From: Nitrospirota bacterium
Lineage (GTDB): Bacteria; Nitrospinota_A; UBA7883; JACRGQ01
Length of the DNA: 64,000 nucleotides
Assembly: GCA_024275955.1 (NCBI GenBank)
Contig: JAJRYD010000003.1
Span: 10,471-74,470 of the forward strand
Direction of reading: 5' to 3'
Below, in pieces: positions 1,583 through 37,397 of this stretch. The stretch's first letter is position 1; the number at the start of each line of letters is the position of its first letter. The translations under genes and the position numbers were made by a program. The notes beneath the pieces were generated by a model, which was not told the DNA's origin, searched no databases, and saw only the letters and a program-made list of their open reading frames with translations.

Positions 1583-2551
1583 CTATTTTATCCCGGAGAG
1601 GTCGGTTTTCATCCGCGCTTCTTCGGCAAATCTTTCCGATTCCGATATCTCTTTTTCATTCGGCTGTACAGACCATTTTCTATGCATCCATAACCATATC
1701 TCTGGATGTTTGCGCACAAACTCCGACTGAAGATCGGCTATCTTTTGCGTGAGAAGAAAGATATCCCGTTTGCTTTCTCCGGTCTGCTTAAACTCCAGCT
1801 CCGGAAGTATGTAGGCGTGGTGCGTGCCGTCGCCTTTTGGAAATGAGAATATCGGCACTATCGGCGCGCCTGTGCGGAAATGCAGAACCGCGGGAGATTT
1901 ATGGTTAGACGACCACCGCCCCAAAAACTTCACCCATACGCCGTTTGTAGATGCTTTTTGATCGGCGGTAAACGCTAGAATTTCGCCGTCTCTAAGCGCC
2001 TTTATCATCGAGTGCATCGCCTTTTCTTTTTTTACGATTTTAAGCCCGCAACTTTCGCGAATGCCGTCCATCTTTTTATCGAGAAACCTGTTGTCTACCT
2101 CGCGGATTACCCAGTGTACCGGCATACCTCTGGCGGCGATAGAGCCGGAGACCAGTTCGCCGTTGTATATATGCATCGAGGTAAGCATTGCCCCTTTTCC
2201 CTGTTTTAACGCTCTCTCTAGGTTTTCCCATCCTTCAACGGTAGCGTAGCTGTCGACGTTGCCTTTGTTCATGCCGCCCATCCAGCAAAACTCGACATAC
2301 ATCCATACCATACTGATGACAGAGCGAACGCCTATATCTTCCATACGTTCCTCCGGCATACTTTTAAAAACGGAGCGAAGGTTATCAAGAGCTATACGGC
2401 GTCTTCTTTTATTTAGTTTCCAGAAAAGTTTTGCGAGTAACTCCCAGAGGGTATAGACCATCTTTCTTGGGGCGAAACGGTTAAACTCCATAACCGGAGC
2501 GGCGGCTATGTAAATGATGAACTCTTTTAGCGCGGAGCGTTTCCTGCTCAC
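1583..2551 (-). CDS. lpxL: Lipid A late acyltransferase (LpxL/HtrB family)
   Basis: HxxxxE (HIYNGE), DQ, WLWMHRKW motifs; next to waaF. Confidence 0.8.
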   Translation of the reverse strand: MSRKRSALKEFIIYIAAAPVMEFNRFAPRKMVYTLWELLAKLFWKLNKRRRRIALDNLRSVFKSMPEERMEDIGVRSVISMVWMYVEFCWMGGMNKGNVDSYATVEGWENLERALKQGKGAMLTSMHIYNGELVSGSIAARGMPVHWVIREVDNRFLDKKMDGIRESCGLKIVKKEKAMHSMIKALRDGEILAFTADQKASTNGVWVKFLGRWSSNHKSPAVLHFRTGAPIVPIFSFPKGDGTHHAYILPELEFKQTGESKRDIFLLTQKIADLQSEFVRKHPEIWLWMHRKWSVQPNEKEISESERFAEEARMKTDLSGIK

Positions 2552-3162
2552 TGTCCGTTTATTCTCCCCGTAAAATTTTTGAGCATACGCAGTCCCACAT
2601 CTTGGCTTTTTTCCGGGTGAAACTGCGTCGCAAAAATATTTCCCTTCCCGATAGAGGAAACAAACATACCGCCGTAGTCTGTTCTCGAAGTGATTATAGC
2701 TTCTTCCTCCGGCTCTACATAATACGAGTGTACAAAATAGAAGTTCGCGTTATTTTCTATTCCTTTAAACATCGGAGATTCTTTTTCGACGACCGCTCCG
2801 TTCCATCCGATGTGCGGCACCTTAAGCGTTCCTTTGGGGAACTTTTTCACTTTGCCTTTAACGATACCGAGTCCTTTGCACCCGCCAAACTCCACGCTCT
2901 CTTCAAAAAGAAGCTGAAGGCCAAGACAGATGCCGAAAAACGGTTTACCGCTTTCGACAAATTTATGAATAGGCTCTATCAGCCGATACTTTTGGAGGTT
3001 CTCCATGCAGACGGCAAAAGCACCGACACCGGGCAAGACTACGGCACAAGCGGAGGTTATCTCCCGAGGGTCGCGCGTAATGACCGCGCTTGAGCCTACC
3101 TTTTCAAAAGCTTTTTGGACACTTCTAAGGTTGCCCATATCGTAATCAATTATAGCTATCAT
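2548..3162 (-). CDS. hisH: Imidazole glycerol phosphate synthase glutaminase subunit
   Basis: DYDMGNLRSV, PGVGAF, GICLG, QFHPEKS. Confidence 0.97.
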   Translation of the reverse strand: MIAIIDYDMGNLRSVQKAFEKVGSSAVITRDPREITSACAVVLPGVGAFAVCMENLQKYRLIEPIHKFVESGKPFFGICLGLQLLFEESVEFGGCKGLGIVKGKVKKFPKGTLKVPHIGWNGAVVEKESPMFKGIENNANFYFVHSYYVEPEEEAIITSRTDYGGMFVSSIGKGNIFATQFHPEKSQDVGLRMLKNFTGRINGQ

Positions 3163-3204
3163 CGGTTTGCCGAATTTAGTTTCGGGTGTTAAACGTGGTT
3201 GAAG

Positions 3205-3798
3205 TTATAAACTGCCTTTGGTGGAAACAGGAACTCCGACAGCCCTTGTTTCCGGCATTGTCGCTATGTCAAGCGCCCTTGCCAACGCCTTAAAAATCGT
3301 CTCGGCGATATGGTGCAGGTTACTGCCATACAGCACGTTGACATGCAGTGTTATTCCGGCGTTATTTGAAAAGGCATGAAAAAATTCTTCGATAAGCTCC
3401 GCGTCGAACTCGCCTATCTTTCCTTTAAGGCTGTGCGAATTGAAAACAAGAAACGGTCTGCCGGAAAAATCTACCGTAACGGACGAAAGCGCTTCATTAA
3501 GCGGAATCACGGCGTTGCCGTATCTTTTGATGCCTTTCTTCTCGCCAAGAGCTTTGGCAAACGCCTGCCCAAGAGCTATGCCGCAATCTTCCACCGTGTG
3601 ATGAAAGTCTACCTCGGTATCGCCGTCCGCCTTGAGTTCTATATCAAAAAAACCATGTACCGATATCTGGTTCAGCATATGATCGAAAAACGGTATAGAT
3701 GTCTCTATTTCCGATTTGCCGGTACCGTTTATGACAAGACTGACGGAAATTTCTGTCTCTTTTGTTTTTCTCTCTACTGTTGCTTTTCCCATAGCCAC
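3205..3798 (-). CDS. hisB: Imidazoleglycerol-phosphate dehydratase
   Basis: RKTKET, FFDHML, HHTVED, NLHHIAE, STKGSL; alternative ATG at 3792. Confidence 0.97.
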   Translation of the reverse strand: MAMGKATVERKTKETEISVSLVINGTGKSEIETSIPFFDHMLNQISVHGFFDIELKADGDTEVDFHHTVEDCGIALGQAFAKALGEKKGIKRYGNAVIPLNEALSSVTVDFSGRPFLVFNSHSLKGKIGEFDAELIEEFFHAFSNNAGITLHVNVLYGSNLHHIAETIFKALARALDIATMPETRAVGVPVSTKGSL

Positions 3799-4121: not shown

Positions 4122-4514
4122 TTAGCTCCCTGTAGTAAAGCTCCATGCTATGCGGGAAAGGCTGTTGCCTGCCCTATCGGTGATAGTATCGCTAAGCGTT
4201 GCGGTATAAGTTGTGTTCGCCGTTAGGTTAGAGTCGATGGTGAATACCGCTTTCTTTTCGTCGGAGCTATACGAAACGGTTCCGGTCACGCCGTTATTTA
4301 GGCTAAACGAAGCGGCGGAAACTGTGGCGGCATCGAGCTGTTCCGAAAAGGTGGCGGTAATATCGAGACTAAGCGCCGTACCTGTTGCCAGATTTTCCGG
4401 AAATGTAGAAACAACGCTAGGGCTTTTAGTGTCGGAGCTTACGGTCAAGGTAAAGTTTCCGCATGAAACGGCAGTTAAAACAGAGAAAACCCCGAACAAA
4501 ACAAGTTTACGCAT
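4122..4514 (-). CDS. Ig-like (Big_5/SbsA-type) domain lipoprotein
   Basis: Start moved to ATG 4514 (MRKLVLFG...TAVSC lipobox); 'PSVVSTFP..ITATFSE..TYTATLS..ITDRAGN..WSFTT' Big_5 pattern; the longer 4628 start lies inside a MITE. Confidence 0.8.
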   Translation of the reverse strand: MRKLVLFGVFSVLTAVSCGNFTLTVSSDTKSPSVVSTFPENLATGTALSLDITATFSEQLDAATVSAASFSLNNGVTGTVSYSSDEKKAVFTIDSNLTANTTYTATLSDTITDRAGNSLSRIAWSFTTGS

Positions 4515-4522
4515 CACAAAAT

Positions 4523-4651
4523 GGGGCTGTTGCCGAATGGGATAAATTCGATTTTTCCGCAAATCGCCAATCTCTAAAACCTCTCTTTTAAAGAAGTTAG
4601 AAAATAAATTTCCCTTTTCAATGCTCAAAAAACTCTTTTGGAAACAGTCCC
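4523..4651 (+). mobile_element. MITE family A, full copy, TSD AAAAT
   Basis: TIR ends; AAAAT at 4518-4522 and 4652-4656. Confidence 0.92.
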
Positions 4652-4703
4652 AAAATATACTTTCGTTTTATTTTTTTTAAAGAGGTAAAATTTTATCGTC
4701 TCT

Positions 4704-6584
4704 TTACAGTTGTTCTTTTGGCAGATAAAGTTTTATCGTTTCTCTTCCGCTTTTTCCGGTTACAGCTATCGAAGCCGAGCCGCTCTTTTTAAACTTTTTC
4801 ATATTTGAACCGCTAAAGATTTTTTTTATTCTTCTTTTACCGTGCCATATCTTCGAGTCGTTTTTCCCTTTATGAAAAACGATAAGATGGGCGCTAAGCA
4901 GATTAGGCAGTTTACCTACATCGACACCGGCTCTGGCAAGCTCGGCCCTAAACGCCGGGTACACAACACGAGGAGCTGTAGAAAGCCGTGAAAGAACTAC
5001 AACGGTTCCTTTTTTAAGCTTTCCTATTTCTCCGCTCAGCTTTTTACTGCCTGCCATGTTTTGGTTTTCATCAGGATAAAATCGTCCGTTCACCTCGTCG
5101 TTTTCCGCGAAAAGCGCCAGATAGCCTTCCTCTGTATGCGCATTTTTAGAAAAATTCTTGCGCCATACAATACGGCTCTCCGCCTCTATATGGCTTTCCA
5201 GATATACGTTTTCGTAAATAACCTGATGCAGTTTTGGCGACGACTCGGCTATGAGGGTTTCACCCTCGTCAACCTTCCATTTTTGAAAATCGGCTGGATG
5301 AAAAAATCCGACTCCACCTTCTTTTAAAAGAGCGCCTATTTCATAATATGTAAACTGCGGAAGCTCCGCTAGAAGCTCCGGCTCGAGCAGTTGCGAGAGT
5401 TTTATCTTTTTTCTTTTTTTAAGTTTTTCTATGCTTTTGTCAAACTGTTTCGTCTGCTCGAAGATGTTTTTATAAACATCATACGCCTCCCTATACATTT
5501 CGGCATTTACAAGCCCCCTTGCCAGCAGAATGGCGGTTTTCTTTTTTAGCTTTTTACACTGTTTGCAGTTTAAGCTCAAAAACTGCTTCGGCAAGCCGGC
5601 CTTGCTCTTTACGATGGAGGATATTTCCAGCAGGCGGACGTAGTACTTCACCGCTTTTTGCAGATCGCCAGCTTTTATAGATGCAGAAACAACTCCAGAG
5701 AGAGCCTCCTTACTGCCGGGGTTGATACCATGCGCGCCGATGTAGCTCTTACTCGCCGCTTTATAATCGCCTGCCACTTCGTACCAGTGGGCGGTTTTCA
5801 TGTAAGAGGTGTACCAGCCGGTGTATGTCCGCCTGCCGAGAAGCGCTCTATCTATATGCTTTAGAGACAAACCATTATCGTCAATTTTCTTTTCGCGGAT
5901 TTTGAGCGCCGCGTTGTAAGGGTCTATCACCAACGCTCTTTCTATAAGCTGATGTTTGATTGATTCGTCTTCGAACTGTTCTACCTTTTCAAGGTACGAC
6001 TCGGCTAGTTCTTTAAGGTTTACGCTGTATCGAAACTCTGGAATGTAGCTTCTAGCTTCTGCTCTTTGCTCCGCGCCGGAGAGATGCACAAGGTATCTAA
6101 TATCCCACTCCAAAGCCCATACCCCGTCAACTTTTCTCCAAAACTCTTCCTGTATGGAGCTTATCGTTACCTGAGGCATCGGAGGCGGAAGAGGCTGTAC
6201 AACTTCGGATGAGACTTCTGCGAAGTTTCTGCCGGCGTTAAGCTTTATGTTTATTATCTTGTAGGCAAGATGAGTCGGCACATACCGTTTATTTAACAGT
6301 TCCTCCATAGCTCCGCCTCTTGTAGTCTCTGGAAGAAGAACGCCGTTGGGAAGATGCGGCTGAAGGATAAACTGCTTTAATGAAATTATTGATTTCAGCC
6401 TCGGTGAGAGGAAAGAGTATATTTTTTCCCAATCGTTGGCTATCTTAGCTTCAAAAAAATCTCTCTGCCTTTCAACAAGCTTTAAAACTTCCCTTCTCTC
6501 CTTTTTGGTGAGCTCCACAGCTAAGACCAGAGGAGAGGCTAAGTGGAAAAACAGCAGAAATAAAACAACGCTCTTTTTTATCAT
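4704..6584 (-). CDS. Secreted multidomain protein: NTF2-like N-terminus, TPR-like middle, degenerate ILEI/GG-like C-terminus
   Basis: Signal peptide; 'FFEAKIANDWEKIYSFLSP..FWRKVDGVW'; TPR-like 'GDLQKAVKYYVRLLE'; 'LSGEIGKLKKGTVVVLS..ELARAG..SAHLIVFHKG' resembles ILEI. Confidence 0.55.
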   Translation of the reverse strand: MIKKSVVLFLLFFHLASPLVLAVELTKKERREVLKLVERQRDFFEAKIANDWEKIYSFLSPRLKSIISLKQFILQPHLPNGVLLPETTRGGAMEELLNKRYVPTHLAYKIINIKLNAGRNFAEVSSEVVQPLPPPMPQVTISSIQEEFWRKVDGVWALEWDIRYLVHLSGAEQRAEARSYIPEFRYSVNLKELAESYLEKVEQFEDESIKHQLIERALVIDPYNAALKIREKKIDDNGLSLKHIDRALLGRRTYTGWYTSYMKTAHWYEVAGDYKAASKSYIGAHGINPGSKEALSGVVSASIKAGDLQKAVKYYVRLLEISSIVKSKAGLPKQFLSLNCKQCKKLKKKTAILLARGLVNAEMYREAYDVYKNIFEQTKQFDKSIEKLKKRKKIKLSQLLEPELLAELPQFTYYEIGALLKEGGVGFFHPADFQKWKVDEGETLIAESSPKLHQVIYENVYLESHIEAESRIVWRKNFSKNAHTEEGYLALFAENDEVNGRFYPDENQNMAGSKKLSGEIGKLKKGTVVVLSRLSTAPRVVYPAFRAELARAGVDVGKLPNLLSAHLIVFHKGKNDSKIWHGKRRIKKIFSGSNMKKFKKSGSASIAVTGKSGRETIKLYLPKEQL

Positions 6585-8062
6585 TTAAGCTTCCATATTT
6601 GATAATAGGCAATATTATCTGAATAACTATAATTTTTCGTAACCCAGTTTATCAGCAAAGGGGCGTAATGCTTTAAAGAACGTTCTTTTTTATTGTCTAT
6701 TTCTATATCGACAAGAACGACTATTCGCGGCAGTGCCTCGCTTAGCTGTTTTACCAGCTCCTTTTCCTGCGTAGAATCCTTCAGTGTGCCGGGCAGTATC
6801 CAGTCGTAATAGGTCGGGTTGTCTATACCGGCAAGGTAGTAAAAAATAGGGCCAAGAGGCGCGACGAATATCGTTTCACCTTCTTTTGTTTCGTTTTCCA
6901 GCCTAGAGGTCAGCTCCGAAACAATTCGCGCGTCCAACTCGGTAAGGTGTATCGCTTTGGCTTTGCCGTCGTTCATTCTCGCTGTCGTCTGCTTTACCGC
7001 CCCTACAGAGCCGACATAGAACCCCTTTACCATATTAAAATCTGCCAAATACAAGACGAAAACAGCCAGAAATACTGTTTCTGCCAAAGCCTTTAGGTGA
7101 GTTTTTTCGATTTTCTCTAGTACGCGGTAGGCAAGAAACGGGGCGACAATAAAAAAAAGCGGAAGGCACCGCACCAAGTTGTCGAAGCCGGCCCTTGTGG
7201 TGACAAGCGCCATGGCGCAAAACTGCAGGTACGAGAGTATCATGAGTCCCGTCCGCTTAACCCCCTCGTCCATTTTAAACGCTACGGCAAAGACTATAGG
7301 GGCCGAGATAAACGGCAGGTAAAAAAGGATATTCTCCAGAAACGCAAAAAAATCGAACTCCCTTCCCTGATAACCTTCAAAAATGGGCGGGAAACTATTC
7401 CCCCAGAGAAAAAGATCGTTCCGCATATGGAAAATAAGCTGGTCGCCATGCTTGCCGAAAAGAAAGAGACCTAATCCTACAGCGGCAAACAGTGTTATCG
7501 CCGGCAATTTCCATCTTCCGCCGTAATCCCGCCAGACAAGATAGGCATAGACCGGCAAAAAGAAGATTAGCGTTTCGGTGCGAAAGAGATAAGCGATAAA
7601 CGCCCCTGCCAAAACCAAGCCGATGTTGCGCCTGCTTTCAAGAAATGCCAGAACCGCCCAGATGTTAAAGAGAAAAACAAAGCCGTAGAACCTTTGGTAG
7701 TAGACAGCCGGAGCTGAAAGGATAAGAAGTGTCGCGGCGACAGCGAATGGAGCCGGCATTAACCTTCTTGAAATCTGAAAAGCAAGCAGAGGGAAAAAAG
7801 CTGTCAAGACTGCCAGCGACCTTCTAACGTCGACCATGTCGGAACCGACAAACCTATATATCAGTTCCACCAGCAGGTAGCGCCCTTGCGTGTACCCGAA
7901 GAAATCTGTCATTACCGATTGGCCGTTGAGGTACCTGACACCTCCGTAATAAATACCACCCTCGTCCCAAAGGTTGATACCGTAGCGGCAAAATGAAAGA
8001 TAATAGACGGCAGATAGAAAAAAGATTACCGTTCCGATAAAAAACGGCCTGCGGTAAATCAT
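6581..8062 (-). CDS. Polytopic GT-C fold glycosyltransferase (ArnT/PMT-like)
   Basis: 'NLWDEG' acidic motif after TM1, about 10 or more hydrophobic segments, soluble C-terminal domain with 'FYYLAG'. Confidence 0.7.
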   Translation of the reverse strand: MIYRRPFFIGTVIFFLSAVYYLSFCRYGINLWDEGGIYYGGVRYLNGQSVMTDFFGYTQGRYLLVELIYRFVGSDMVDVRRSLAVLTAFFPLLAFQISRRLMPAPFAVAATLLILSAPAVYYQRFYGFVFLFNIWAVLAFLESRRNIGLVLAGAFIAYLFRTETLIFFLPVYAYLVWRDYGGRWKLPAITLFAAVGLGLFLFGKHGDQLIFHMRNDLFLWGNSFPPIFEGYQGREFDFFAFLENILFYLPFISAPIVFAVAFKMDEGVKRTGLMILSYLQFCAMALVTTRAGFDNLVRCLPLFFIVAPFLAYRVLEKIEKTHLKALAETVFLAVFVLYLADFNMVKGFYVGSVGAVKQTTARMNDGKAKAIHLTELDARIVSELTSRLENETKEGETIFVAPLGPIFYYLAGIDNPTYYDWILPGTLKDSTQEKELVKQLSEALPRIVVLVDIEIDNKKERSLKHYAPLLINWVTKNYSYSDNIAYYQIWKLK

Positions 8063-8078
8063 CCGGCCTTTTTCCGGT

Positions 8079-9350
8079 TCAGTTTTTCAATAACTTTTTT
8101 GCCTTTTTCCCGGATTCTGAATCGGGAGAAAGCTTTACCGTGGTCTCATACTCTTTGCGGGCTTCTTTCTTGTTGCCTTTCTTTGAGAGTATATTTCCTT
8201 TAAGGAGGTGTAGGTCTACAAGGCCCTCTACCGCCGACTGGTCGAGCATCGCCATAGCTTTTTCGGTAAACTCTATGGAGGCCTCAAGGTCGCCTTTCGC
8301 GTAGTGTACCTTTGCTAGGTAGTAATAGTAGCTCGGCTTTTCTGCCGGCGCTTTTTTAACCCCGTCGTTGAGTACTTTAACCGCCTCGGCGTAGTTAGAG
8401 GAAGATTGCATGCTTGCATCGGCAAAGCCAGCCCTCGCTTTTGAAAAGGCAGGATTGATCTTAAACGACTTGCCAAAATGCTCAAACGCTTTTTCGTAGT
8501 TTCCCTTCTTCAGGTAATACTCTCCAAACCAGAAATGGGTAAACTCGTTTTCGGCATTCATCTGGTTTGATTTTTCAAGGTAAGGAAAGGCATCGTCCAG
8601 TCTGCCTGTAATCATCATCAGCTGGCCCAGGCTCAGATATACATAAGGGTTTTCTTTATCTAGCGATATTGATTTAAGGTAGCTTTGCTCCGCCATATCC
8701 CATATTTTCTGCTCATCAGCCCACCGGCCGTAATAGTTGTAAGCCATAGCACTCTTAGGGTTTATCGCGAGTGCTTTATCTAACGCTTCTTTTGCCTCCG
8801 GGTAATTCTCGTTTCTTGTAAGAATAACCGCGAGGCTTTCCCATGCCTGCCCAGAGCCGGACTGAAGCTCTGTCCATCTTGTCGCGCGGTTGACAGCCTT
8901 TTCCAGCAGACCGATTTTCGGATATATGTCGGAAAGTATTTTATAGTTTAAAGCGAAGTTCGGCTCCTTTTTAGCAGAAAGTTCAAAAAGCTCTACCGCC
9001 TTTTTAAGGTCTTTTTTGTGATAATAAATAACCGCTTTCCAGTGATCCAACAGGTATCTGTCACTCTTCGAGATTATCGGCTCCAGCTGGTTTAGGACGG
9101 TGAAAGCTCCGTCAAACTTTTCGAGCCGTGCCAGTGTTTCGGCCTTTAGAAAATGAGCCGGTAAATTCCGCTCAAATAGTTCTATCGCCGTTTCGGCCTC
9201 CTTGAGAGCTTTTCCCATCTGGCCGGCGTTTAGATACTCTTTGGCTATTTCAAAATGAATCTCGGAATCGAACTGTTTTTTCTCTAAAGAACCTGTACAG
9301 CCCAAAAAAAAGAGCGGGAGCAAAAGGGCAAGAATCATCCTTAACTTCAT
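8079..9350 (-). CDS. TPR-repeat lipoprotein
   Basis: FFLGC lipobox; many TPR units (e.g. AKEALDKALAINPKSAMAYNYYG). Confidence 0.85.
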   Translation of the reverse strand: MKLRMILALLLPLFFLGCTGSLEKKQFDSEIHFEIAKEYLNAGQMGKALKEAETAIELFERNLPAHFLKAETLARLEKFDGAFTVLNQLEPIISKSDRYLLDHWKAVIYYHKKDLKKAVELFELSAKKEPNFALNYKILSDIYPKIGLLEKAVNRATRWTELQSGSGQAWESLAVILTRNENYPEAKEALDKALAINPKSAMAYNYYGRWADEQKIWDMAEQSYLKSISLDKENPYVYLSLGQLMMITGRLDDAFPYLEKSNQMNAENEFTHFWFGEYYLKKGNYEKAFEHFGKSFKINPAFSKARAGFADASMQSSSNYAEAVKVLNDGVKKAPAEKPSYYYYLAKVHYAKGDLEASIEFTEKAMAMLDQSAVEGLVDLHLLKGNILSKKGNKKEARKEYETTVKLSPDSESGKKAKKLLKN

Positions 9351-9367
9351 ACTGTCTAGGATAATAC

Positions 9368-9398
9368 AAAAAAACCCCCGGCTTTTACAAGCCGGGGG
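9368..9398 (-). terminator. Rho-independent terminator
   Basis: CCCCCGGCTT-x-AAGCCGGGGG stem followed by 7 T on the minus strand, ~30 nt after the 9429 stop. Confidence 0.85.
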
Positions 9399-9428
9399 CC
9401 TAATATCGAACTAAACTATACGATAGCT

Positions 9429-9866
9429 TTAGTTGGTACTTTCTCCATGAGAGAAGTTAAACCCGCCACTATATGTAGACTCGAAAAGAGTAGTAAAACC
9501 ACGAACCGTCGTAGGTTTAATATCTACCCAGCCACGTCTGTTATTGGTGTCGGTGGTATCGTCGCCGCCGGTAGTACCATTAAAGACTGTGGAAGCTACG
9601 TTACCGAGATTACCGAGGTTGAAAAACCAACCGCCGTTACTCACGATAGTCTTGGTGGTAGAGCCTAATGCTGTACCGTCCCACCTGTAAAAAGTTACTG
9701 TAGTAGCCACACTTCCGCCAGAATCGTTGTTTACCCATACATAGGTATTCCAAGTGGTAGCTGTACTACCGCACGAACCACAACCAAACCAGTAGCCTTT
9801 GTCCGCGTGGGCACTCCCCGCAGAAACGAGTAGCATCGCAACAGTTGCTAAAAGAAATTTTTTCAT
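9429..9866 (-). CDS. Small secreted Thr/Gly/Asn-rich beta protein, unknown function
   Basis: AGGAGG SD, ATG 9866, Sec signal ending AHA; own terminator; alternative in-frame TTG at 9932. Confidence 0.85.
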   Translation of the reverse strand: MKKFLLATVAMLLVSAGSAHADKGYWFGCGSCGSTATTWNTYVWVNNDSGGSVATTVTFYRWDGTALGSTTKTIVSNGGWFFNLGNLGNVASTVFNGTTGGDDTTDTNNRRGWVDIKPTTVRGFTTLFESTYSGGFNFSHGESTN

Positions 9867-10098
9867 ACTAAATCCTCCTTCCTTAATAATATTTTTTTGT
9901 TCAATTTTATAAAAATCGGTCAATCGCAACAAAGATAAGCCTCCCCTCTTTTTTTGATATCTGGTCTAAATCGGTAGCCTCCGTCTAATATTTTACATCT
10001 CCAAAGCAAATTCATATCTTCGTATCGTCAAATAAGATTATTTCTTTAGTCAAAAAACCTTTTTCAAATAGACAAATTAACAGTTATCAGCTTATTGG

Positions 10099-10114
10099 AG
10101 CAAAGACCGTGCCG
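10099..10114 (-). promoter_or_regulatory. Sigma54 (-24/-12) promoter
   Basis: Minus strand CGGCACGGTCTTTGCT vs consensus TGGCACG-N4-TTGCW, exact GG-N10-GC spacing, facing the 9866 gene. Confidence 0.75.
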
Positions 10115-11422: not shown

Positions 11423-12127
11423 TTACCTGTTTTCAAGTAGCTGTAGGTAAGCCTTTGCTTCCTTAAAATCAGAATTAATATCCAACGCCTTTTTTATATA
11501 GATTGCCGCCTCTTCCTCTTTACCCCATTCCTTATAGGCCCGTGATAAATTGTAGTAGAGTACTTCGTCTTTTGGGTCTATCTTCAACGCCTTGGTATAG
11601 TTCCGTACCGCCTCTTCGAAAAGCTTGTTCTGTCTTAACTCGATACCTAGCTGGTTGAAGGTATGTTTGTTTTCTTCTGTGTATAAATCGGCGTTGTCCG
11701 CCATAGCATCGAAATGTTCAAGAGCTTTATCAGTTTCGCCAAGAGCCATATGGGCCTTGCCTTTTCCGAGGTGGGCCTGAAGGTTTTCACTATCCTCCTT
11801 TAACACCCTTCCAAGCTCAAAAGTAGCGGAGCTGAATTCTTCGTTTTCGAGATGCTTAAGCCCCACCTCCACCATCTTGGCCACCTGCTCCGCCTTTTTT
11901 TCTGCCGCGCTTTTTTTCTTAAACTTGCAGGCTGTATGCTCGGAGCATGCGGTAAACCTTGCCTGAAAGTCATCCATAGAAATTGTTTCCGACGATATCC
12001 CTGTCGTAGTGCCGTCGTTTTTAGGAAACTGAAGGTCTACTCCGCCGCCTCTTTCCTTGACGTAGTAGTGAAGGGCGTCAGCCGATGAACCAGAAGCAGG
12101 TTTTTCAAAATAGAGACCTTCAACCAT
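11423..12127 (-). CDS. TPR protein with unnamed N-terminal domain (CSEHTAC)
   Basis: C-terminal TPRs (KHTFNQLGIELR..AVRNYTKALKIDPKDEVLYYNLSRAY); N-terminal 70 aa similar to C-terminus of 20262 protein. Confidence 0.85.
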   Translation of the reverse strand: MVEGLYFEKPASGSSADALHYYVKERGGGVDLQFPKNDGTTTGISSETISMDDFQARFTACSEHTACKFKKKSAAEKKAEQVAKMVEVGLKHLENEEFSSATFELGRVLKEDSENLQAHLGKGKAHMALGETDKALEHFDAMADNADLYTEENKHTFNQLGIELRQNKLFEEAVRNYTKALKIDPKDEVLYYNLSRAYKEWGKEEEAAIYIKKALDINSDFKEAKAYLQLLENR

Positions 12128-12164
12128 ATCTAATTATTCCCCTCTAAAAATCACGGACTCTGTA

Positions 12165-13826
12165 TTAGCGATTCGCCCTTTTTTGGGCGCCGGTGAATTT
12201 TTTTAACTGAATTTTAAACCACCTGTCGTTCGGACTAAGCTCTAGAGCCTTATTAATCCACTCAATCGCCCCGTCAAAATCACCTTTATTGTAATAAACC
12301 TCCGAGAGGGTATCCATATACCCTGGTAAATCTTTGAAGTACTTCATGGAGGCAAGCGAAAGCTGTTCCGCCTCATCAAGGTTTTTTCCGCCAACCGCGT
12401 ATGCCCATGCCAGCCTGTTTTGTGCCGGAGCGTTTGTCGGGTCTATCTCAAGAATTTTTTTGCAGTACTCTTCGGTCTTTTCATTGTCTCCCATCCGGCT
12501 GTAGGATGTAGCCAGCCCAAGATAGGAACGTATGTTATTAGCACTTTTTGACAAGGCAAGGTTAAAATATTCTATCGCTTTTTTAGTATCGCCGTTAGAG
12601 AGAAAACCAAAAGCACTGTTGTTAATATTCTCCACATGGCCAGAATCCATTCTGCCGACAACACGAAACTCTTTGGCGGCAAGCTGTTCCTGCCCAGACT
12701 TGTGAAGAACATAGGCTAGGGCAAGCCGGTTCTCCATATTTTCCGGATCAAGCTCCAAAACCTGCCTATAGGTATTAATCGCCTTTTGCATCATCTCCAT
12801 GCTCCGCTGAAGGTCGGCAATCACTATAAGGTCTTCACGCGATGGGGGAGTGGAGACCAGCCTCTCATTAAAAAGTGCTAGCGCTTTATCTGTGCTTTTG
12901 TCAGACTTATAAAGCCTAAACAGACGCTCCACCGACAGCCGGCCGCTTCCTGCTCTGTTTACTATCGCCTCTTGTATTCTTATCTGCCCTTCCTTATCCC
13001 CTTTCGAGGAATAGTACTCGAAAAGTATCGCTCCAACCTCTTCACTTTCAGGTTTCATATCAAAATAGGTTTCATAATATGGAATCGACTCTTCTGTCTT
13101 GCCGAGGTTTTCCAGAGTGGTGGCAAGCTTCATTATCACCGCTAAATCTTTCGACTCGGCCTTGCCGGAACTTTTATAGTATTCAAACGCTTTTTTATAA
13201 TTTCCTTCACGGTAAAAGGTGTCGCCCATTTTTAAAATCCTGTCTGGGTTTTCCTTCGAGAAGTAAAGATAAATATCTCTCGATATTTTATGTTCGAGGA
13301 TTTCATTTTTCGATTTATAAACAAAAAATCCGCCGCCGCCCAAAGCGCCAAGAAAGAGCAGAGTGAAAAGGATAGATAGAAACCCCATCCCTCCTTTTTT
13401 CTTCTTTGGAAAACTATTTTTACCGATTGTCTCTGCGTAGTTGTTGCCCAGTATTTCGCTTAAATCTTCGTCGTTACCGTTTGAAGCTGTTTTCTGAGTG
13501 CCAGAAGGCATAACACAGCTTCCCTGAAGGATGGCGCCCTCTTCCGCGACGAGAACAGGAGTGTCGATACTCCCGTTAAGATAACTTTTGTCAAAAATGG
13601 AAATTTTTCTTTCGGCTTTGACGTCGCCCATAATTCTTCCCATATTAAAGAGATTACCGGCATTCACCATAGCCTCGACTTTGCCCAGATTGCCGACGAT
13701 AAGGGTTCCTTCCGTCTGTATCTCCCCTTGAAAATCGCCATCAAAGCGAAGGGCACCCTTAAACTTAAGAACGCCGTTCATCCTTATTCCATCCCCAAAG
13801 TAGGAATTTAACTCCTCTCTCATCAT
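12165..13826 (-). CDS. Bactofilin domain-TM-TPR fusion protein
   Basis: 'GVLKFKGALRFDGDFQGEI..EEGAILQGSCVM' bactofilin pattern; KKKKGG plus hydrophobic helix; TPR array to C-terminus. Confidence 0.85.
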   Translation of the reverse strand: MMREELNSYFGDGIRMNGVLKFKGALRFDGDFQGEIQTEGTLIVGNLGKVEAMVNAGNLFNMGRIMGDVKAERKISIFDKSYLNGSIDTPVLVAEEGAILQGSCVMPSGTQKTASNGNDEDLSEILGNNYAETIGKNSFPKKKKGGMGFLSILFTLLFLGALGGGGFFVYKSKNEILEHKISRDIYLYFSKENPDRILKMGDTFYREGNYKKAFEYYKSSGKAESKDLAVIMKLATTLENLGKTEESIPYYETYFDMKPESEEVGAILFEYYSSKGDKEGQIRIQEAIVNRAGSGRLSVERLFRLYKSDKSTDKALALFNERLVSTPPSREDLIVIADLQRSMEMMQKAINTYRQVLELDPENMENRLALAYVLHKSGQEQLAAKEFRVVGRMDSGHVENINNSAFGFLSNGDTKKAIEYFNLALSKSANNIRSYLGLATSYSRMGDNEKTEEYCKKILEIDPTNAPAQNRLAWAYAVGGKNLDEAEQLSLASMKYFKDLPGYMDTLSEVYYNKGDFDGAIEWINKALELSPNDRWFKIQLKKFTGAQKRANR

Positions 13827-13888
13827 ATCAGCCTATTAGGTGTAAAATTTTAAGTCAAGAGCTGACTTTGACAGCGCAACTCATTATT

Positions 13889-15394
13889 TTATTGTAGGTT
13901 TTTCAACGTAATCTCAAACCTGCCAAGCTGGCCCGAACGCTTCTTTTCAAGCAGAGTGAACTCTCTTGAACTTAGAAACCCAAATAGAATCAATACGATA
14001 ACTACAAGTATGCATGCTTTTCCGGCACTCTTTTTCTCTGGGCCGACCCCTTTTAAAAGAGCTACCACACCTGTTGAAAGCACCATATAGAAAAAAGGCA
14101 AGAAGGGGTAGACCATCCGTGAGAGGGCATAAAAAATAATCGACACGAAAAACGGAATAAGAAGAAGCAGGAGAGGAAGGTATCTTATCGCTCCTTTATC
14201 TTTCATCTTTGTCAGCTGGTAAAAGCCGTAGAGAAAGAGGAGAAGAGCGAGCGAGAGCGCTACCTTGTTTTTTGGCACGAAAGAATCGGCCTTATTTGGG
14301 ATTTCGCCTTCCAGCCCCGCCGGAAAGTTATTCAGAAAAAACCCGTTAGAAAAACCGTTTAGAAATATGCCGGCTTTTTTAGGTAATAGCGATAGTTCCA
14401 TCGGAAGATTCTCTTTGATATGCTTCCACCCCAGCCTGTAACCATCCCTCACCATAGCCAGATGCGACCCGTTGTCTGGCGTAAGGTTTAGGACAGCGCC
14501 ATCTTCTAGTCTCTCTGAAAAATAAGGGGCGTAGGTGCCGGTCGCTTTTTGGTGGTGCCCTTCAAGAAAGTTAAACGGCCCATTGAGTGCCACAGGAACA
14601 AAGGTAGGCAGGTTCGCCTGTGGGTAAGCTTTGTTAAGCTCTTTCATAAAAAAATAGTTCCTTACCGTCCATGGCGTAATCAAAAGAATAAATCCTAAAA
14701 ATGCCGCGGTGAAAATTTTTATCTTCCTCGCGGGGACCCACTCTTTTTTAAACAGCCCAAACATAAAAAAAATAAAGACAGCCAAAAGAAACTCCGACCG
14801 TGAGAGGACGGCGATGGCGGCTGTACAGCCGAAGAAAAATGAAAAAATGATATAGTGCCGGGCCGCTATCGACCTTTCTCTGTAGAGAAATATAAAACAG
14901 AATGTGGAAAGCGAAGAGGTGAATAGATAAATATTCTCGGTATTAAGACCGCCGGTAATGAAAATAAGCGTAAAAGATACAGAACATAAGAAGGCGGTTA
15001 TTAAAGCTGTTTTTTTGTCTAGCAGTTCTCTTGCGGTAAGGTAGATAAAAAGAATGGAAAGAGAGCCGATAACCGCGTAGCAGATTTTTAAGATAAATAT
15101 ATCGTGGCCGAACAGCGATTGAAACGCTATCAGTGCCCATATCGTAAACGGCGGCGGGAATGGGATGTTCATCCCTTTTCCGCTTAGAAAATCATCTGCT
15201 ATCAGCGCGTAATAATCTGCGTCTGAAAAATGCAGGACCGACCCGCTAAAAAACCGCATGCCGAGGATGGAGCTTTTTCCCGCCTCCTCCCAGCCAAGAG
15301 AGCCGAGATGCCAATACCTGTAGAGGAAAGAAAGAATAATTATGGAGAGCAGGCAAGCTATCTCACCGCCTTTAACACCTTTGGGAAAATTCAT
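13889..15394 (-). CDS. Polytopic GT-C fold glycosyltransferase (ArnT/PMT_2-like)
   Basis: 'SDADYY..A..F..G', 'PPP', 'TEN', 'PWTVRNY' motifs, many TMs. Confidence 0.75.
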   Translation of the reverse strand: MNFPKGVKGGEIACLLSIIILSFLYRYWHLGSLGWEEAGKSSILGMRFFSGSVLHFSDADYYALIADDFLSGKGMNIPFPPPFTIWALIAFQSLFGHDIFILKICYAVIGSLSILFIYLTARELLDKKTALITAFLCSVSFTLIFITGGLNTENIYLFTSSLSTFCFIFLYRERSIAARHYIIFSFFFGCTAAIAVLSRSEFLLAVFIFFMFGLFKKEWVPARKIKIFTAAFLGFILLITPWTVRNYFFMKELNKAYPQANLPTFVPVALNGPFNFLEGHHQKATGTYAPYFSERLEDGAVLNLTPDNGSHLAMVRDGYRLGWKHIKENLPMELSLLPKKAGIFLNGFSNGFFLNNFPAGLEGEIPNKADSFVPKNKVALSLALLLFLYGFYQLTKMKDKGAIRYLPLLLLLIPFFVSIIFYALSRMVYPFLPFFYMVLSTGVVALLKGVGPEKKSAGKACILVVIVLILFGFLSSREFTLLEKKRSGQLGRFEITLKNLQ

Positions 15395-16526: not shown

Positions 16527-16979
16527 ATGGCACGGTTTTCTTCAGTAGCTTTGGTTCTGGTATTTTTAATAACCGCTTGCGGCGGCGGTGGGGGAGACAG
16601 CACCGGCAGTGATAGCGGCGGGGTAACCGACGCTTCCAGTACGGTAAAAATAACAAGCACAAACCCTGAGGATGGCGCGACCGCCGTAGCGCTTACCGTA
16701 TCCGGTAGCCGCACGCATGTTTATGTCTGGTTTGACGACCTTATCGACACGACTACTCTGACATCTAGTACAGGGTTTACTTTGGACGGCGGGTCAGGCT
16801 CTATCGCCGGAGCAGTTACCACTACAACTGTATCTGGTTCCAAGACCGAGATGCTTTATATACCGACCAGCACGCTTTCAACCTCGACACTGCATACAGC
16901 GACAGTAGCCAGCACAGTTAAAGATACCGGCGGAGCATCGAGAACTGCCGCCTATTCTTGGACATTTACAACCGAATAA
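16527..16979 (+). CDS. Ig-like (Big_5-type) domain lipoprotein
   Basis: LITAC lipobox, Gly/Ser linker, 'TSTNPEDGAT..VKDTGG..YSWTFTT'. Confidence 0.8.
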   Translation: MARFSSVALVLVFLITACGGGGGDSTGSDSGGVTDASSTVKITSTNPEDGATAVALTVSGSRTHVYVWFDDLIDTTTLTSSTGFTLDGGSGSIAGAVTTTTVSGSKTEMLYIPTSTLSTSTLHTATVASTVKDTGGASRTAAYSWTFTTE

Positions 16980-18036: not shown

Positions 18037-18672
18037 CTACGGCTTGAAACGGTTTTTAAGTTCAGTCAGTATTTTTTCTGGCGGGATATCGTGCGCGGTG
18101 AGCGCGACCATCATATGGAAAAGGAGGTCGGCCGCTTCGTAGACTATCTCTTTCTCATCGTTATTTTTGCAGGCCATTACAAGTTCGACTGCTTCCTCGC
18201 CTATTTTTTTTAGGTAGGCATTTTCCCCTTTTTTGAAAAGGGAAGCGGTATAGGAACCTTCCGGCAAATCTTTTTTCCTCTGCTGTAGCACCTGATAAAG
18301 GCGTGCAAGCAGTTCTTCGCTGTCTGCCGGCGCCGGCTTTGTAAGCTCGTCACCATCAGCTATTTCCCTAAACCAGCAGGTTTCACTACCTGTGTGGCAT
18401 GCCGGCCCTTTAGCCTCTACGGTTATCAAAAGGGTATCGGCATCGCAGTCGTATTCCATCTTTGCTACTTTTTGCGTGTTGCCACTTTCTTCGCCTTTCT
18501 TCCATACCTTGCCACGCGAGCGTGAGAAAAAATGCGTGAAGCCTGTTTTCCTTGTCATCTCTATCGTTTCCGGGGTCATCCATGCCATCATAAGAACTTT
18601 TTTCGACTTTGAATCCTGCACGATAGCGGGGATCAATCCCTTTCCGTTGAATTTCAGTTCTATTTCGCTCAT
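18037..18672 (-). CDS. hisIE: Bifunctional PR-AMP cyclohydrolase/PR-ATP pyrophosphatase
   Basis: [37 protein letters not shown]. Confidence 0.96.
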
Positions 18673-19424
18673 ATTCTTACAGGTACCCCTTTGTCTGCCA
18701 GATAGCTTTTCACTTCGCCGATTGTATGCTCACCGAAATGGAATATGGAAGCGGCCAGAGCGGCATCTGCTTTCGCCTCGTTAAACCCTTCGTAAAAATG
18801 CTTGAGCGCTCCCACGCCTCCAGAGGCGATGACAGGTATATCGACCGCTTCACAAACGGCCCGTGTCAGTTTAATATCGTACCCTTCTTTAGTGCCGTCC
18901 CTATCCATGCTTGTAAGAAGTATTTCGCCGGCGCCGAAATCGCGCATTTTTTTACACCAGCCTATAGCCTCGATGCCTGTACCGTTTCTCCCTCCGTGAG
19001 TATAAACCTCAAACTGCTCGCCAGACCATTTCGCGTCAACCGCCACTACTATACATTGCGTGCCGAATTTGAGAGCGGCCTGTTTTACAAATTCGGGGTC
19101 TTTGATGGCGGCGGTATTTATCCCTACCTTGTCGGCACCGGCTTTTAGAAGGCTACGGATATCATCAAGAGTCCGTACGCCACCGCCAACGGTAAGCGGC
19201 ATAAAAATCTGCTCGGCGGTTCTCTCTACGACATCTATGATGGTGTTTCGGTTGTCGCTGGAGGCGGTAATATCGAGAAACGTAAGCTCGTCCGCGCCCT
19301 GCTTATCGTAGATTGCCGCCTGCTCGACAGGGTCGCCGGCATCTATAAGGTTAAGAAAGTTTATCCCTTTTACCACTCTGCCGTCCTTAACGTCGAGACA
19401 TGGAATTATTCTTTTTGTCAGCAC
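18669..19424 (-). CDS. hisF: Imidazole glycerol phosphate synthase cyclase subunit
   Basis: [26 protein letters not shown]. Confidence 0.98.
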
Positions 19425-20137
19425 TGAAACTCTTTCACCGCCGCCGCGAGATCTATAGCTTTTGTGTAAAGCGCTTTGCCTATAATAGCTCCGCTTACTC
19501 CCTCTATTTTGGAAAGAGCCAAAAGGTCATCGCTGGAAGATACTCCGCCGGATGCTATTAACGGAAATGGAGAAGCGAGGGCCATCTCTTTTATCGCGTC
19601 GATGTTTACTCCCTGCATCATTCCGTCGCGCGATATGTCGGTGAAGACTACCGCGGCAAGGGGCCAGCTTTTTAGTTTTCCCATAAGCTCTTTGCCTGTA
19701 AGCGTGGATGATGTTACCCATCCGTCGCCTGTTGCCATATTTTCTTTCACATCAATACCGGCTACTACCTTGTGTCGATATTTTTCGGCAATAGCGCGCG
19801 CGCTGTCTGAGTCTTTTAACAAAAGCGAGCCGATAACAATCCTGCTTACCCCCGCGTCGAAATAAGCGGCGGCGGTAGAGATGTTTCTTATCCCTCCTCC
19901 AAGCTGTATAGGAGTTTTGACCGCCTTACAGATATCTTTTACCAGCTCCCCGTTTTTCGGCAGACCTTCAAACGCTCCGTCTAGGTCTACTATATGAATA
20001 AGCTCGGCCCCGCCCTCTTCCCACTTTTTTGCCTGCTCGACAGGGTTGTCGGAAAATACGGTTTCCCTCTCCATATCACCTTGAATAAGACGGACGCAAC
20101 GCCCGCCTTTTAAATCTATTGCCGGTATTATTTGCAT
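19418..20137 (-). CDS. hisA: ProFAR isomerase
   Basis: [29 protein letters not shown]. Confidence 0.97.
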
Positions 20138-36296: not shown

Positions 36297-37397
36297 TCAG
36301 CCCTTTTTTAATAGCTTGGCAAGCTCAAGGATAAATCTTTTATTATCTTCCTTGCGCCCTATGGTAACCCTTATACAGCCCGGCAAACCGTATACATCCA
36401 TCGGTCTCACGACAACACCTTTGGCCATAAGCTGGTTAAACACTTTTCGGCCTTTGCCCACCTTGACGAGTATAAAGTTAGCCTCTGTCGGGTAAAATTC
36501 GATTCCTCTTTTAGCAAGCTCCCTGTAGAGCTGTTTTTTTCCCTGCTGGTTTATCTTTTGCGATTTTTTTATATGACCAACGTCGCCAAGCGCGGCAAGA
36601 GCGCCTGCCTGCGCCAGCATATTTACATTAAACGGCTGACGCACGCGGTTAAGATAATCTATCAGCTCCGGGTTGCCGACAGCATAGCCGATCCTCAGCC
36701 CTGCCAGGCCATACGCTTTTGAAAAAGTTCTTAAGGTTATAATGTTTGAGAACTTTTTTCTCATAGCAATCGTGTCTGGGTAGTCGCGCGCTTCCACGTA
36801 TTCGTAGTACGCTTCGTCCATAACCACGGGAACCTTTGGGATGGAGGTGAGGAATGCGGTCAACTGCTCTTTATTTAAATATGTGCCTGTGGGGTTATTC
36901 GGGTTGGCTATAAACAGTAGCTTGGTTCTCCGGTTAATTAGCTTTGCCATCGCGTTAAGGTCGTGTCCGTAGCCTATAGATTTTGCTTCGCGCACCTCAA
37001 CGCCCATCCCCAGAGCGGCTATCTTATACATTAAAAACGCTTGTTGCGAAATTACGATATTGTCTCCCTGCCTTAAGAGAACACGAAACAAAAGCTCTAT
37101 CATTTCGTTTGAGCCGTTACCTATGACAAGTTCGTTTGGACGTATGCTAAGCTTTTTCGCAAGCTTCTCGTGGAGGTAAAAGCACCCTCCTTCCGGGTAA
37201 AAGTTTACCTTTGCCGCCGCTTTCCTTACGGCGGCAAGCGCTTTTGGAGAAGGGCCAAGCGGGTTCTCGTTGCTTGCCATCTTCACGGAACGCCTGATGC
37301 CAAGCTCCCGCTCCACTTCATCAAGCGGTTTGCCCGGCTCATACGGTTTAAGCGAGCGTATGTAGTCGGGTACCGATTTTCCTAAAAATTCTTTCAC
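36297..37397 (-). CDS. hisC: Histidinol-phosphate aminotransferase
   Basis: YEPGKP, ASNENPLG, NPNNPTG, RTFSKAYGLAGLRIG. Confidence 0.95.
   Translation of the reverse strand: MKEFLGKSVPDYIRSLKPYEPGKPLDEVERELGIRRSVKMASNENPLGPSPKALAAVRKAAAKVNFYPEGGCFYLHEKLAKKLSIRPNELVIGNGSNEMIELLFRVLLRQGDNIVISQQAFLMYKIAALGMGVEVREAKSIGYGHDLNAMAKLINRRTKLLFIANPNNPTGTYLNKEQLTAFLTSIPKVPVVMDEAYYEYVEARDYPDTIAMRKKFSNIITLRTFSKAYGLAGLRIGYAVGNPELIDYLNRVRQPFNVNMLAQAGALAALGDVGHIKKSQKINQQGKKQLYRELAKRGIEFYPTEANFILVKVGKGRKVFNQLMAKGVVVRPMDVYGLPGCIRVTIGRKEDNKRFILELAKLLKKG

Follow-up and report, generated by a model that had tools for sequence, protein, structure and literature searches.

A 64,000-nt stretch of the Nitrospirota bacterium contig JAJRYD010000003.1 (the window, to whose numbering all positions refer) carries on its minus strand four genes that encode a 145-aa secreted protein, a TPR lipoprotein, a PMT_2-like GT-C glycosyltransferase and a 626-aa secreted protein (P626). 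Our analysis points to a real module without an earlier description, and to a periplasmic or cell-envelope glycosylation system rather than a proven fibre, in which the small protein would be either a glycan-binding partner or a glycosylated substrate. A functional module is the best reading since the linkage of the four components recurs in two phyla with a rearranged gene order. The parts are of known kinds (GT-C, TPR, NTF2, ILEI and an ASRAH-like sandwich) and the family of the small protein is unnamed; a literature search found no description of the module, the relevant paper on ASRAH being one of 2009. The account that we tentatively favour, while placing it somewhat short of an even chance, is that of a four-gene envelope glycosylation module whose small protein, a sandwich of the ASRT/TM1070 (ASRAH) type, would be abundant and act as a sugar-binding partner. 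The reasons are that each of the four products faces the periplasm and that two have sugar-recognition folds.

The small gene (9429-9866) follows a leader of about 220 nt (9867-10088) and is separated by an intrinsic terminator (9372-9401) from the accessory genes, namely those of the TPR lipoprotein (8079-9350; 423 aa, lipobox FLGC), the GT-C enzyme (6581-8062; 493 aa, PMT_2-like) and P626 (4704-6584), of which the last two overlap by 4 nt. The module adjoins lpxL- and waaF-like genes of lipopolysaccharide synthesis. All features that the first-pass annotation of this DNA had listed are present in the sequence, including the leader, a strong Shine-Dalgarno, the terminator and the overlap, and its description of the small gene as a unit of its own with strong expression signals, followed by accessory genes, holds as well.

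Within the family the small gene is found in 9 of 13 genomes. The order small gene-TPR-GT-C-P626, followed by hisB, hisH, an lpxL-like and a waaF-like gene, is kept in every relative with a long enough contig; a tenth relative (G009) has a contig that breaks off within the GT-C gene, and that of G008 is too short to judge the module. Orthologues of the TPR lipoprotein (35-39% identity) lie directly 3' of the small gene in 9 relatives. In genus g4 (G003, G010) the waaF-lpxL-hisH-hisB block is kept and all four module genes are absent, both at the site and elsewhere in the genomes. With the single small protein as query no genome outside the family gave a match at E<0.1, and a related-locus search with the GT-C protein gave no matches. 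The genome of the window has a single copy of the small gene. Extra copies were noticed in two relatives: in G005 (L013, G005:C289, 6614-8110) a flagellin gene (Flagellin_N E 1e-33) comes immediately after a nearly identical copy, which has leader and terminator, and in G012 (L016, G012:C90, 6568-7483) tandem paralogues stand beside ccmF, with a perfect TGGCAC-N5-TTGCT 87 nt before the first start and an acidic Asp/Gly/Ser-rich tail on the first copy.

Linkage beyond the family was surveyed with profiles of the small protein and of the GT-C enzyme, over 401 sampled genomes and then over 14 genomes of a second, unrelated phylum. Outside the family, the 401 genomes hold the small family in 7 cases and the GT-C family in 14; the two sets share 2 genomes where about 0.25 would be expected, and in both of them (G054 and G223) the two genes are adjacent. 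In the second phylum the small family occurs in 9 genomes and the GT-C family in 12, and the genes lie within 6 kb of each other in four of the eight genomes that have both (G223, G401, G054 and G402, from three families). They are about 289 kb apart in G405 and G406 and on different contigs in G404 and G409. The enzyme beside the small homologue is a match of the window's GT-C family (E 2.4e-53 in G223 and 5.5e-47 in G054; also in G401 and G402). The order is unlike that of the window: the GT-C gene is followed by BNR-like and T2SS-C-like genes, then by a YfhO-like GT-C gene (G223, G401), then by the small gene with its terminator, 3' of which G223 has a TPR lipoprotein and G401 a TPR match. 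The G223 cluster also has a 169-aa homologue of the NTF2-like N-domain of P626 (hhalign 95.2%, E 2.9e-8), and a convergent TMEM260-like GT-C gene is part of the G223 and G401 clusters. Profile comparison with hhalign found the window GT-C unrelated to the YfhO-like and TMEM260-like genes of G223 (0.06% and 3.6%, respectively). The tie of the small gene to GT-C and TPR genes, which the first-pass annotation had drawn from the window, is present in 9 of 13 family genomes and, in another order, in 4 genomes of another phylum; the co-occurrence check proposed at first pass thus does not refute it.

Two side observations belong to these surveys. In other phyla (L151, L152, L155, L156) the GT-C family gene often stands beside one to three YfhO-like GT-C genes, and this neighbourhood suggests clusters of several extracytoplasmic glycosyltransferases. 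In G404 (L164, G404:C16, ~9245-9664) two small-gene copies are adjacent, and an in-frame stop makes one of them a likely pseudogene.

In the GT-C enzyme, residues 6-345 contain at least 9 hydrophobic segments, and the protein ends in a soluble tail of some 150 aa. The motif NLWDEGG (N30-L-W-D-E-G35) is invariant in 8 orthologues and lies in the loop after the first membrane helix, which we place on the periplasmic side because the N-terminus is positive. The match of the window enzyme to PMT_2 (21.9 bits) is under the cut-off of 26.1, and 7 of 8 orthologues match the model at E<=0.01, with a best E of 5.4e-9; a PDB search with the GT-C profile gave no sequence match to any solved GT-C structure. 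The TPR lipoprotein matches TPR_2 at E 3.7e-42 and scores 103.7 bits against the PrsT equivalog model TIGR02917, short of its cut-off of 312.2.

P626 was modelled with AlphaFold 2 (AF2) at a mean predicted local distance difference test (pLDDT) score of 75.1 and consists of an NTF2-like domain (~27-160), a TPR part (~190-420) with a conserved CxxC at 340-343, and a domain like those of ILEI, FAM3 and the POMGnT1 stem (~440-595). The N-domain aligns with 3d9r at Z 9.1. For the C-domain (~413-596) the structural matches are the POMGnT1 stem (5ggf_A, Z 13.3 with 128 residues aligned; 5ggj_A, Z 13.1), FAM3B (2yoq_A, Z 12.2), FAM3A, 7ecq_A (Z 11.9) and TMEM2 (8c6i_A, Z 11.8), and Foldseek gives FAM3C (5lc2_A) with probability 1.00 and TM 0.53. 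Domain scans of P626 gave no Pfam ILEI match. The NTF2/TPR/ILEI composition, which had been proposed for this protein from the letters, is borne out by the AF2 model, Foldseek and structural alignment alike.

The small protein has a Sec signal peptide ending AHA|D (AHA|DKG), and its 124 mature residues include 23 Thr, 20 Gly, 12 Asn and 11 Ser. It has no match in Pfam or NCBIfam. A word-indexed search of 5.8 billion proteins recovers the query alone; when 1.84 billion representatives were searched exhaustively with HMMER, 16 proteins reached E<=1e-3, of which 13, the query included, are 133-148 aa long and the other three have 172 aa, 469 aa with four repeats, and 2,162 aa. A profile of 18 sequences found 17 unnamed proteins, and a search for longer fused forms gave one weak match, a protein of 1,365 aa (E 1.2e-4). 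By these sequence searches the family is unnamed, an orphan. Trp26 and Asn47 are invariant in the 18 aligned sequences, and the mature N-terminus (D-R/K-G-F/Y-W) and a C-terminal G-F-N-F strand are conserved; in a joint alignment of the two phyla Asn47 and Gly135 are invariant and Trp26, Thr41, Thr56, Thr70 and Gly112 nearly so. Peculiar to the window protein is an insertion of Cys-Gly-Ser-Cys (residues 30-33, window 9774-9785) close to the N-terminus of the mature part; the 17 other aligned homologues do not have it. There is no class III type IV pilin leader, the N-terminus being a classical Sec signal, and the C-terminus is without the PEP motif, membrane helix and basic tail of PEP-CTERM proteins; both absences had been noted from the sequence at first pass and are confirmed.

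The AF2 model of the small protein is an eight-stranded sandwich (pLDDT 74.1). In a structural ranking over 48,161 chains TM1070 comes first (1nc7_A; Z 9.4, root-mean-square deviation 4.0, 108 of 116 residues aligned) and ASRT second (2ii7_A, Z 7.3), followed by FlgD, carbohydrate-binding modules and galectins; Ena2A fibres reach Z 4.3. Foldseek returned nothing at E<=0.001 for this protein, 1nc7 having a probability of 0.99 but an E of 0.049. Among named Atlas clusters DUF5719 and ASRT come nearest (0.83-0.84), and 30 unnamed clusters of ~150-aa proteins lie at 0.96, Hydrogenedentota and Binatota being the commonest taxa among these look-alikes. Relatives with two and four domains exist (G086, 459 aa; P0015, 469 aa), and hhalign gives 66.5% between the small family and the four-repeat protein of 469 aa. 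A PDB sequence search with the profile of the small protein yielded the adenovirus fibre knob alone, at E 0.039.

A GGAGGA Shine-Dalgarno lies 7 nt 5' of the small gene's ATG at 9866, and transcription would start about 220 nt 5' of that ATG. A sigma54-type promoter-like element, cGGCAC-N5-TTGCt (10100-10114, 247 nt 5' of the ATG), equals the consensus TGGCAC-N5-TTGCW except for the first T. The core GGCAC-N5-TTGC has 28 copies in the 2.45-Mb genome against 14.2 expected by composition; the copy at 10100-10114 is intergenic, and other intergenic copies lie upstream of a flagellar rod gene and of two secreted proteins. Elsewhere in the genome are rpoN and about 12 strong matches to the activator domain of sigma54 enhancer-binding proteins, and a genome scan for this domain found no enhancer-binding protein gene at the locus. 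The motif is in none of the 10 relatives' small-gene copies examined, the G012 tandem pair apart; six relatives have sigma70-like promoters 206-242 nt 5' of the ATG, in the same position as the sigma54-like element of the window. Of 8 small genes in the second phylum, none has a sigma54 motif within 350 nt. The small gene had been called sigma54-driven at first pass. For the window genome, with its near-consensus site and rpoN, sigma54 control is plausible; it is not a property of the system, because the motif is missing from the ten relatives' copies examined.

The leader contains purine-rich boxes and an A/U-rich tract before the Shine-Dalgarno. Leaders of relatives share a purine box about 100-120 nt 5' of the ATG, a U-rich tract and a Shine-Dalgarno; the box, G-rich and then AGGAGG-like, is seen in most family leaders (window 9867-10088; L010-L019), and leaders of the second phylum (L144, L146, L160-L164) have a GGGAGA...CCCTC hairpin 45-60 nt 5' of the ATG. 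The motif may be a 5' hairpin that stabilises the mRNA, or a target of a GGA-binding regulator. An Rfam scan assigned the leader to no family, tRNA alone being above the gathering score, and RNAalifold on 10 leaders gave 0 consensus pairs. The upstream purine box was also considered as a small open reading frame (ORF), which was rejected as not consistent among leaders.

The terminator at 9372-9401 has a 13-pair stem with 8 G-C pairs and then a T run. An equivalent hairpin stands 3' of 11 of the 12 small-gene homologues inspected, the exception being the first gene of the G012 tandem pair, and in the second phylum a strong terminator and a strong ribosome-binding site are found at 7 of 8 small genes. 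The TPR gene starts 22 nt after the terminator without a clear Shine-Dalgarno (window 9351-9371), and a TATTAT box lies about 11 nt 5' of its ATG, with TATAAT at a similar site in relatives. Given these two features, the accessory genes may be read via terminator read-through or from a near-leaderless start.

Taken together, the parts would work as follows. The inner-membrane GT-C would move a sugar from a polyprenyl-phosphate carrier to an acceptor on the periplasmic side, via the Asp-Glu motif of its first loop. The TPR lipoprotein and P626 would be its helpers, the TPR parts holding the acceptor and the ILEI/POMGnT1-stem-like domain of P626 reading the sugar. The small protein would come from its own strong unit and, because the terminator separates this unit from theirs, would be made in excess of the helpers; it would then bind the glycan made by the enzyme or hand a substrate to it.

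A number of observations weigh against such a sugar-binding partner, or against the linkage. Neither the ASRT nor the DUF5719 Pfam model matches the window small protein, the His and Cys ligand residues of ASRT are not kept, and sugar binding by ASRAH domains is itself a prediction. The Z of 9.4 to TM1070 is modestly above 7-8, the usual best Z of models without a clear match. Expression is a further point: the small gene had been described as highly expressed, and codon usage gives this no support, its codon adaptation of 0.65 (relative to 10 ribosomal and elongation-factor genes) being at the 37th percentile of 2,117 ORFs, in a test limited by the unusual amino-acid composition and a possibly conditional promoter. 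As to linkage, 11 other loci of the GT-C family, in other phyla, have no small homologue within ~9 kb; G374 has the cluster without a small gene, G391 and G086 have small-family proteins without such a GT-C nearby, and in G032, which belongs to a different class of the window's phylum, a GT-C with 29% identity occurs without partners. Small-gene copies away from any GT-C occur in G005, in the G012 tandem pair and in G404-G406. It should also be noted that genomes within each phylum are kin, and that few events are independent: about two lineages and a single loss.

The alternative that survives best takes the small protein as the dedicated acceptor, whose conserved strand threonines would be O-glycosylated by the GT-C with its TPR helpers, the ILEI/stem-like domain reading the product; we regard this as possible, though on the unlikely side. 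The enzyme is PMT_2-like, which is the clan of protein O-mannosyltransferases, although PMT_2 also covers lipid A and glycan transferases. A TMEM260-like GT-C shares the cluster in G223 and G401, and the best match of the P626 C-domain is the POMGnT1 stem. TMEM260 and the TMTCs, which carry TPR parts, mannosylate Ser/Thr on beta-sandwich strands, according to passages of PMC10214176. Thr makes up 23 of 124 mature residues, and T41, T56 and T70 are nearly invariant across both phyla, a conservation that may, however, be purely structural. In the pilin-TfpW system, as published, enzyme genes likewise come after a subunit gene that has its own terminator. Against an acceptor stand the absence of any direct sign of modification and of an O-glycosylation motif known for this case, and paralogues distant from any GT-C would need service in trans. 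Sequons of the type N-X-S/T are not enriched either (48 versus 44.7 expected from shuffles of 18 proteins), and since this count is near the shuffle expectation, N-glycosylation of the small protein was dropped.

The acceptor idea can be carried further by analogy. The module might be a bacterial counterpart of eukaryotic domain-specific O-mannosylation, in which the GT-C with its TPR and P626 helpers would glycosylate strand threonines and the glycoprotein would coat or structure the envelope. We consider this extended form rather unlikely. If it were true, the small family and the GT-C family would be a new enzyme-substrate pair in at least two uncultured phyla; should the small protein prove to be the acceptor, strand-specific O-glycosylation of folded beta sandwiches would not be confined to eukaryotes. 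Bacterial GT-C enzymes with TPR partners are common and few of them have a known acceptor, and the locus offers a candidate dedicated partner. The acceptor question is directly testable because this candidate is a 12-kDa secreted protein, which should be simple to express and to weigh by mass spectrometry. The locus also gives an orphan family of small secreted proteins its first genomic context.

The first-pass annotation had seen in the small protein a subunit that builds a new surface fibre or layer and that the GT-C modifies. Several features fit such a role: the small gene has a promoter of its own, a long leader and a strong ribosome-binding site, and a terminator parts it from the accessory genes; the conserved mature N-terminus and C-terminal strand are ends that could serve strand exchange; and there is a weak fold match to Ena2A (Z 4.3). 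Yet in neither phylum does the module include a gene for export or assembly, be it for an usher, a secretin, a sortase or an outer-membrane pore. The organism is a diderm, since lpxL and waaF genes are present, and a Sec substrate would stay periplasmic unless moved onward. The best fold matches (TM1070, Z 9.4; ASRT, Z 7.3) are soluble tetrameric proteins with predicted sugar binding, and not pilins or S-layer proteins, and codon usage at the 37th percentile is unlike that of abundant proteins. A fibre or layer subunit is therefore improbable. More improbable still is that the small gene is an independent unit beside the GT-C by inherited gene order: it has its own promoter and terminator, hisB, hisH and the lipopolysaccharide genes show the same degree of synteny in the family, some paralogues have unrelated neighbours and 11 GT-C loci lack the small gene, but adjacency to the GT-C family recurs in the second phylum, rearranged and with a TPR lipoprotein and an NTF2-like protein, and the module was lost as a whole in genus g4.

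The surroundings of the module in the window deserve a few words. Downstream of P626 lies a Big_5 Ig-like lipoprotein gene (4122-4517, minus strand; Big_5 E 2.3e-24) that had been counted with the locus at first pass. It is present as described and is not conserved beside the module, no counterpart being found at E<=1e-5 in any of 11 relatives' loci, and it is probably outside the module. A second Big_5 Ig-like protein is encoded at 16527-16979; the one at 4122-4517 is the lipoprotein. Upstream, at 11423-15394 on the minus strand, there is a second GT-C/TPR-themed set, which is conserved in G004: a GT-C that clearly matches PMT_2 (13889-15394; E 3.2e-14), a fusion of bactofilin and TPR parts that includes a membrane segment (12165-13826) and, at 11423-12127, a TPR protein. 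This GT-C is not detectably related to the 493-aa enzyme, which as query finds one match only in its own genome. The histidine genes are split, with hisA-hisF-hisIE and hisB-hisH about 14 kb apart (window 2548-3798, 18037-20137 and 36297-37397); between the two blocks lie both GT-C/TPR sets, a CheY-like regulator and tRNA-His, and hisC is 16 kb further. Among named HisB proteins the closest, at 69% identity, comes from a MAG labelled Nitrospinota.

Returning to the proposed envelope glycosylation module with a sugar-binding partner, we compare it with known systems. XrtA/PEP-CTERM loci share with it the TPR lipoprotein and a possible sigma54 promoter, but the lipoprotein falls short of PrsT (103.7 versus 312.2 bits), the small protein is without a PEP-CTERM tail and no exosortase was seen in the locus. 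In ArnT, YfhO/CsbB/GtcA and the three-component GT2-flippase-GT-C systems an envelope glycan receives a sugar from a GT-C that works outside the cytoplasm; the window module has lpxL/waaF-like genes as neighbours, and YfhO-like genes are part of the second-phylum clusters. In contrast to these systems, no gene for a GT2 polyprenyl-phosphate sugar synthase or a flippase was seen in the module. To our knowledge, systems of the ArnT/YfhO type include neither a small secreted protein as dedicated partner nor a TPR lipoprotein nor an NTF2-ILEI protein.

Group IV pili of Pseudomonas aeruginosa, with pilin and TfpW (and TfpX), have a locus of similar layout: the gene of an abundant secreted subunit, the pilin, precedes that of TfpW, a large enzyme of the membrane whose loop 1 is periplasmic and which has a C-terminal domain; TfpW glycosylates the pilin subunit from a lipid-linked donor. 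The small protein, however, is not a type IV pilin and has no class III leader, pilus machinery is not linked to it and no genes of D-Araf synthesis were seen. Eukaryotic TMTC1-4 and TMEM260 are, in the passages of PMC10214176, GT-C enzymes with TPR parts that act on Ser/Thr in beta-sandwich strands, their targets being cadherin EC and plexin IPT domains. With the O-mannosylation pathway the module has in common the ILEI/stem-like fold and, in the G223 and G401 clusters, a TMEM260-like gene. Here, by contrast, the TPR and ILEI parts are on separate proteins, the setting is bacterial and the site periplasmic, and the likeness is one of fold and architecture only.

The last comparison is with the ASRAH superfamily. 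Passages of the ASRAH paper (PMC2739507) predict sugar binding for the superfamily and describe secreted forms in Chloroflexi (four domains plus an amidase fusion) and in Actinobacteria (a two-domain lipoprotein), the actinobacterial ones being tightly linked to a glycosyltransferase and fused to one in Frankia; families other than the ASRT-like are given residues of their own at the ligand positions. DUF5719 is apparently the actinobacterial lipoprotein family of that paper, since one Atlas cluster carries both DUF5719 and ASRT. None of 18 members of the small family matches ASRT (PF07100) at E<=1, and DUF5719 (PF18986) matches 1 of 18 at 7e-6, not the window protein; a genome search with PF07100 gave a match at another place (E 0.046), and one with PF18986 gave no match, but none in the controls either. 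The small protein lacks the His/Cys ligand residues of the SHEshChhN strand-2 signature. It is a solo secreted protein, whereas the secreted forms in those passages (PMC2739507) are dyads or tetrads and the solo forms intracellular, and its partner enzyme is a GT-C, the passages leaving the fold of theirs unstated. What the two share is an eight-stranded sandwich of about 110-120 residues, with TM1070 and ASRT as the two best structural matches of the small protein; apparently a strand-1 Trp and an Asn at the end of strand 2, where W26 and N47 parallel W7 and N32 of ASRAH in the passages of PMC2739507; and the genomic tie of secreted members to a glycosyltransferase that the same passages report. 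The module would thereby extend the predicted link between an ASRAH-type sandwich and a glycosyltransferase beyond Actinobacteria.

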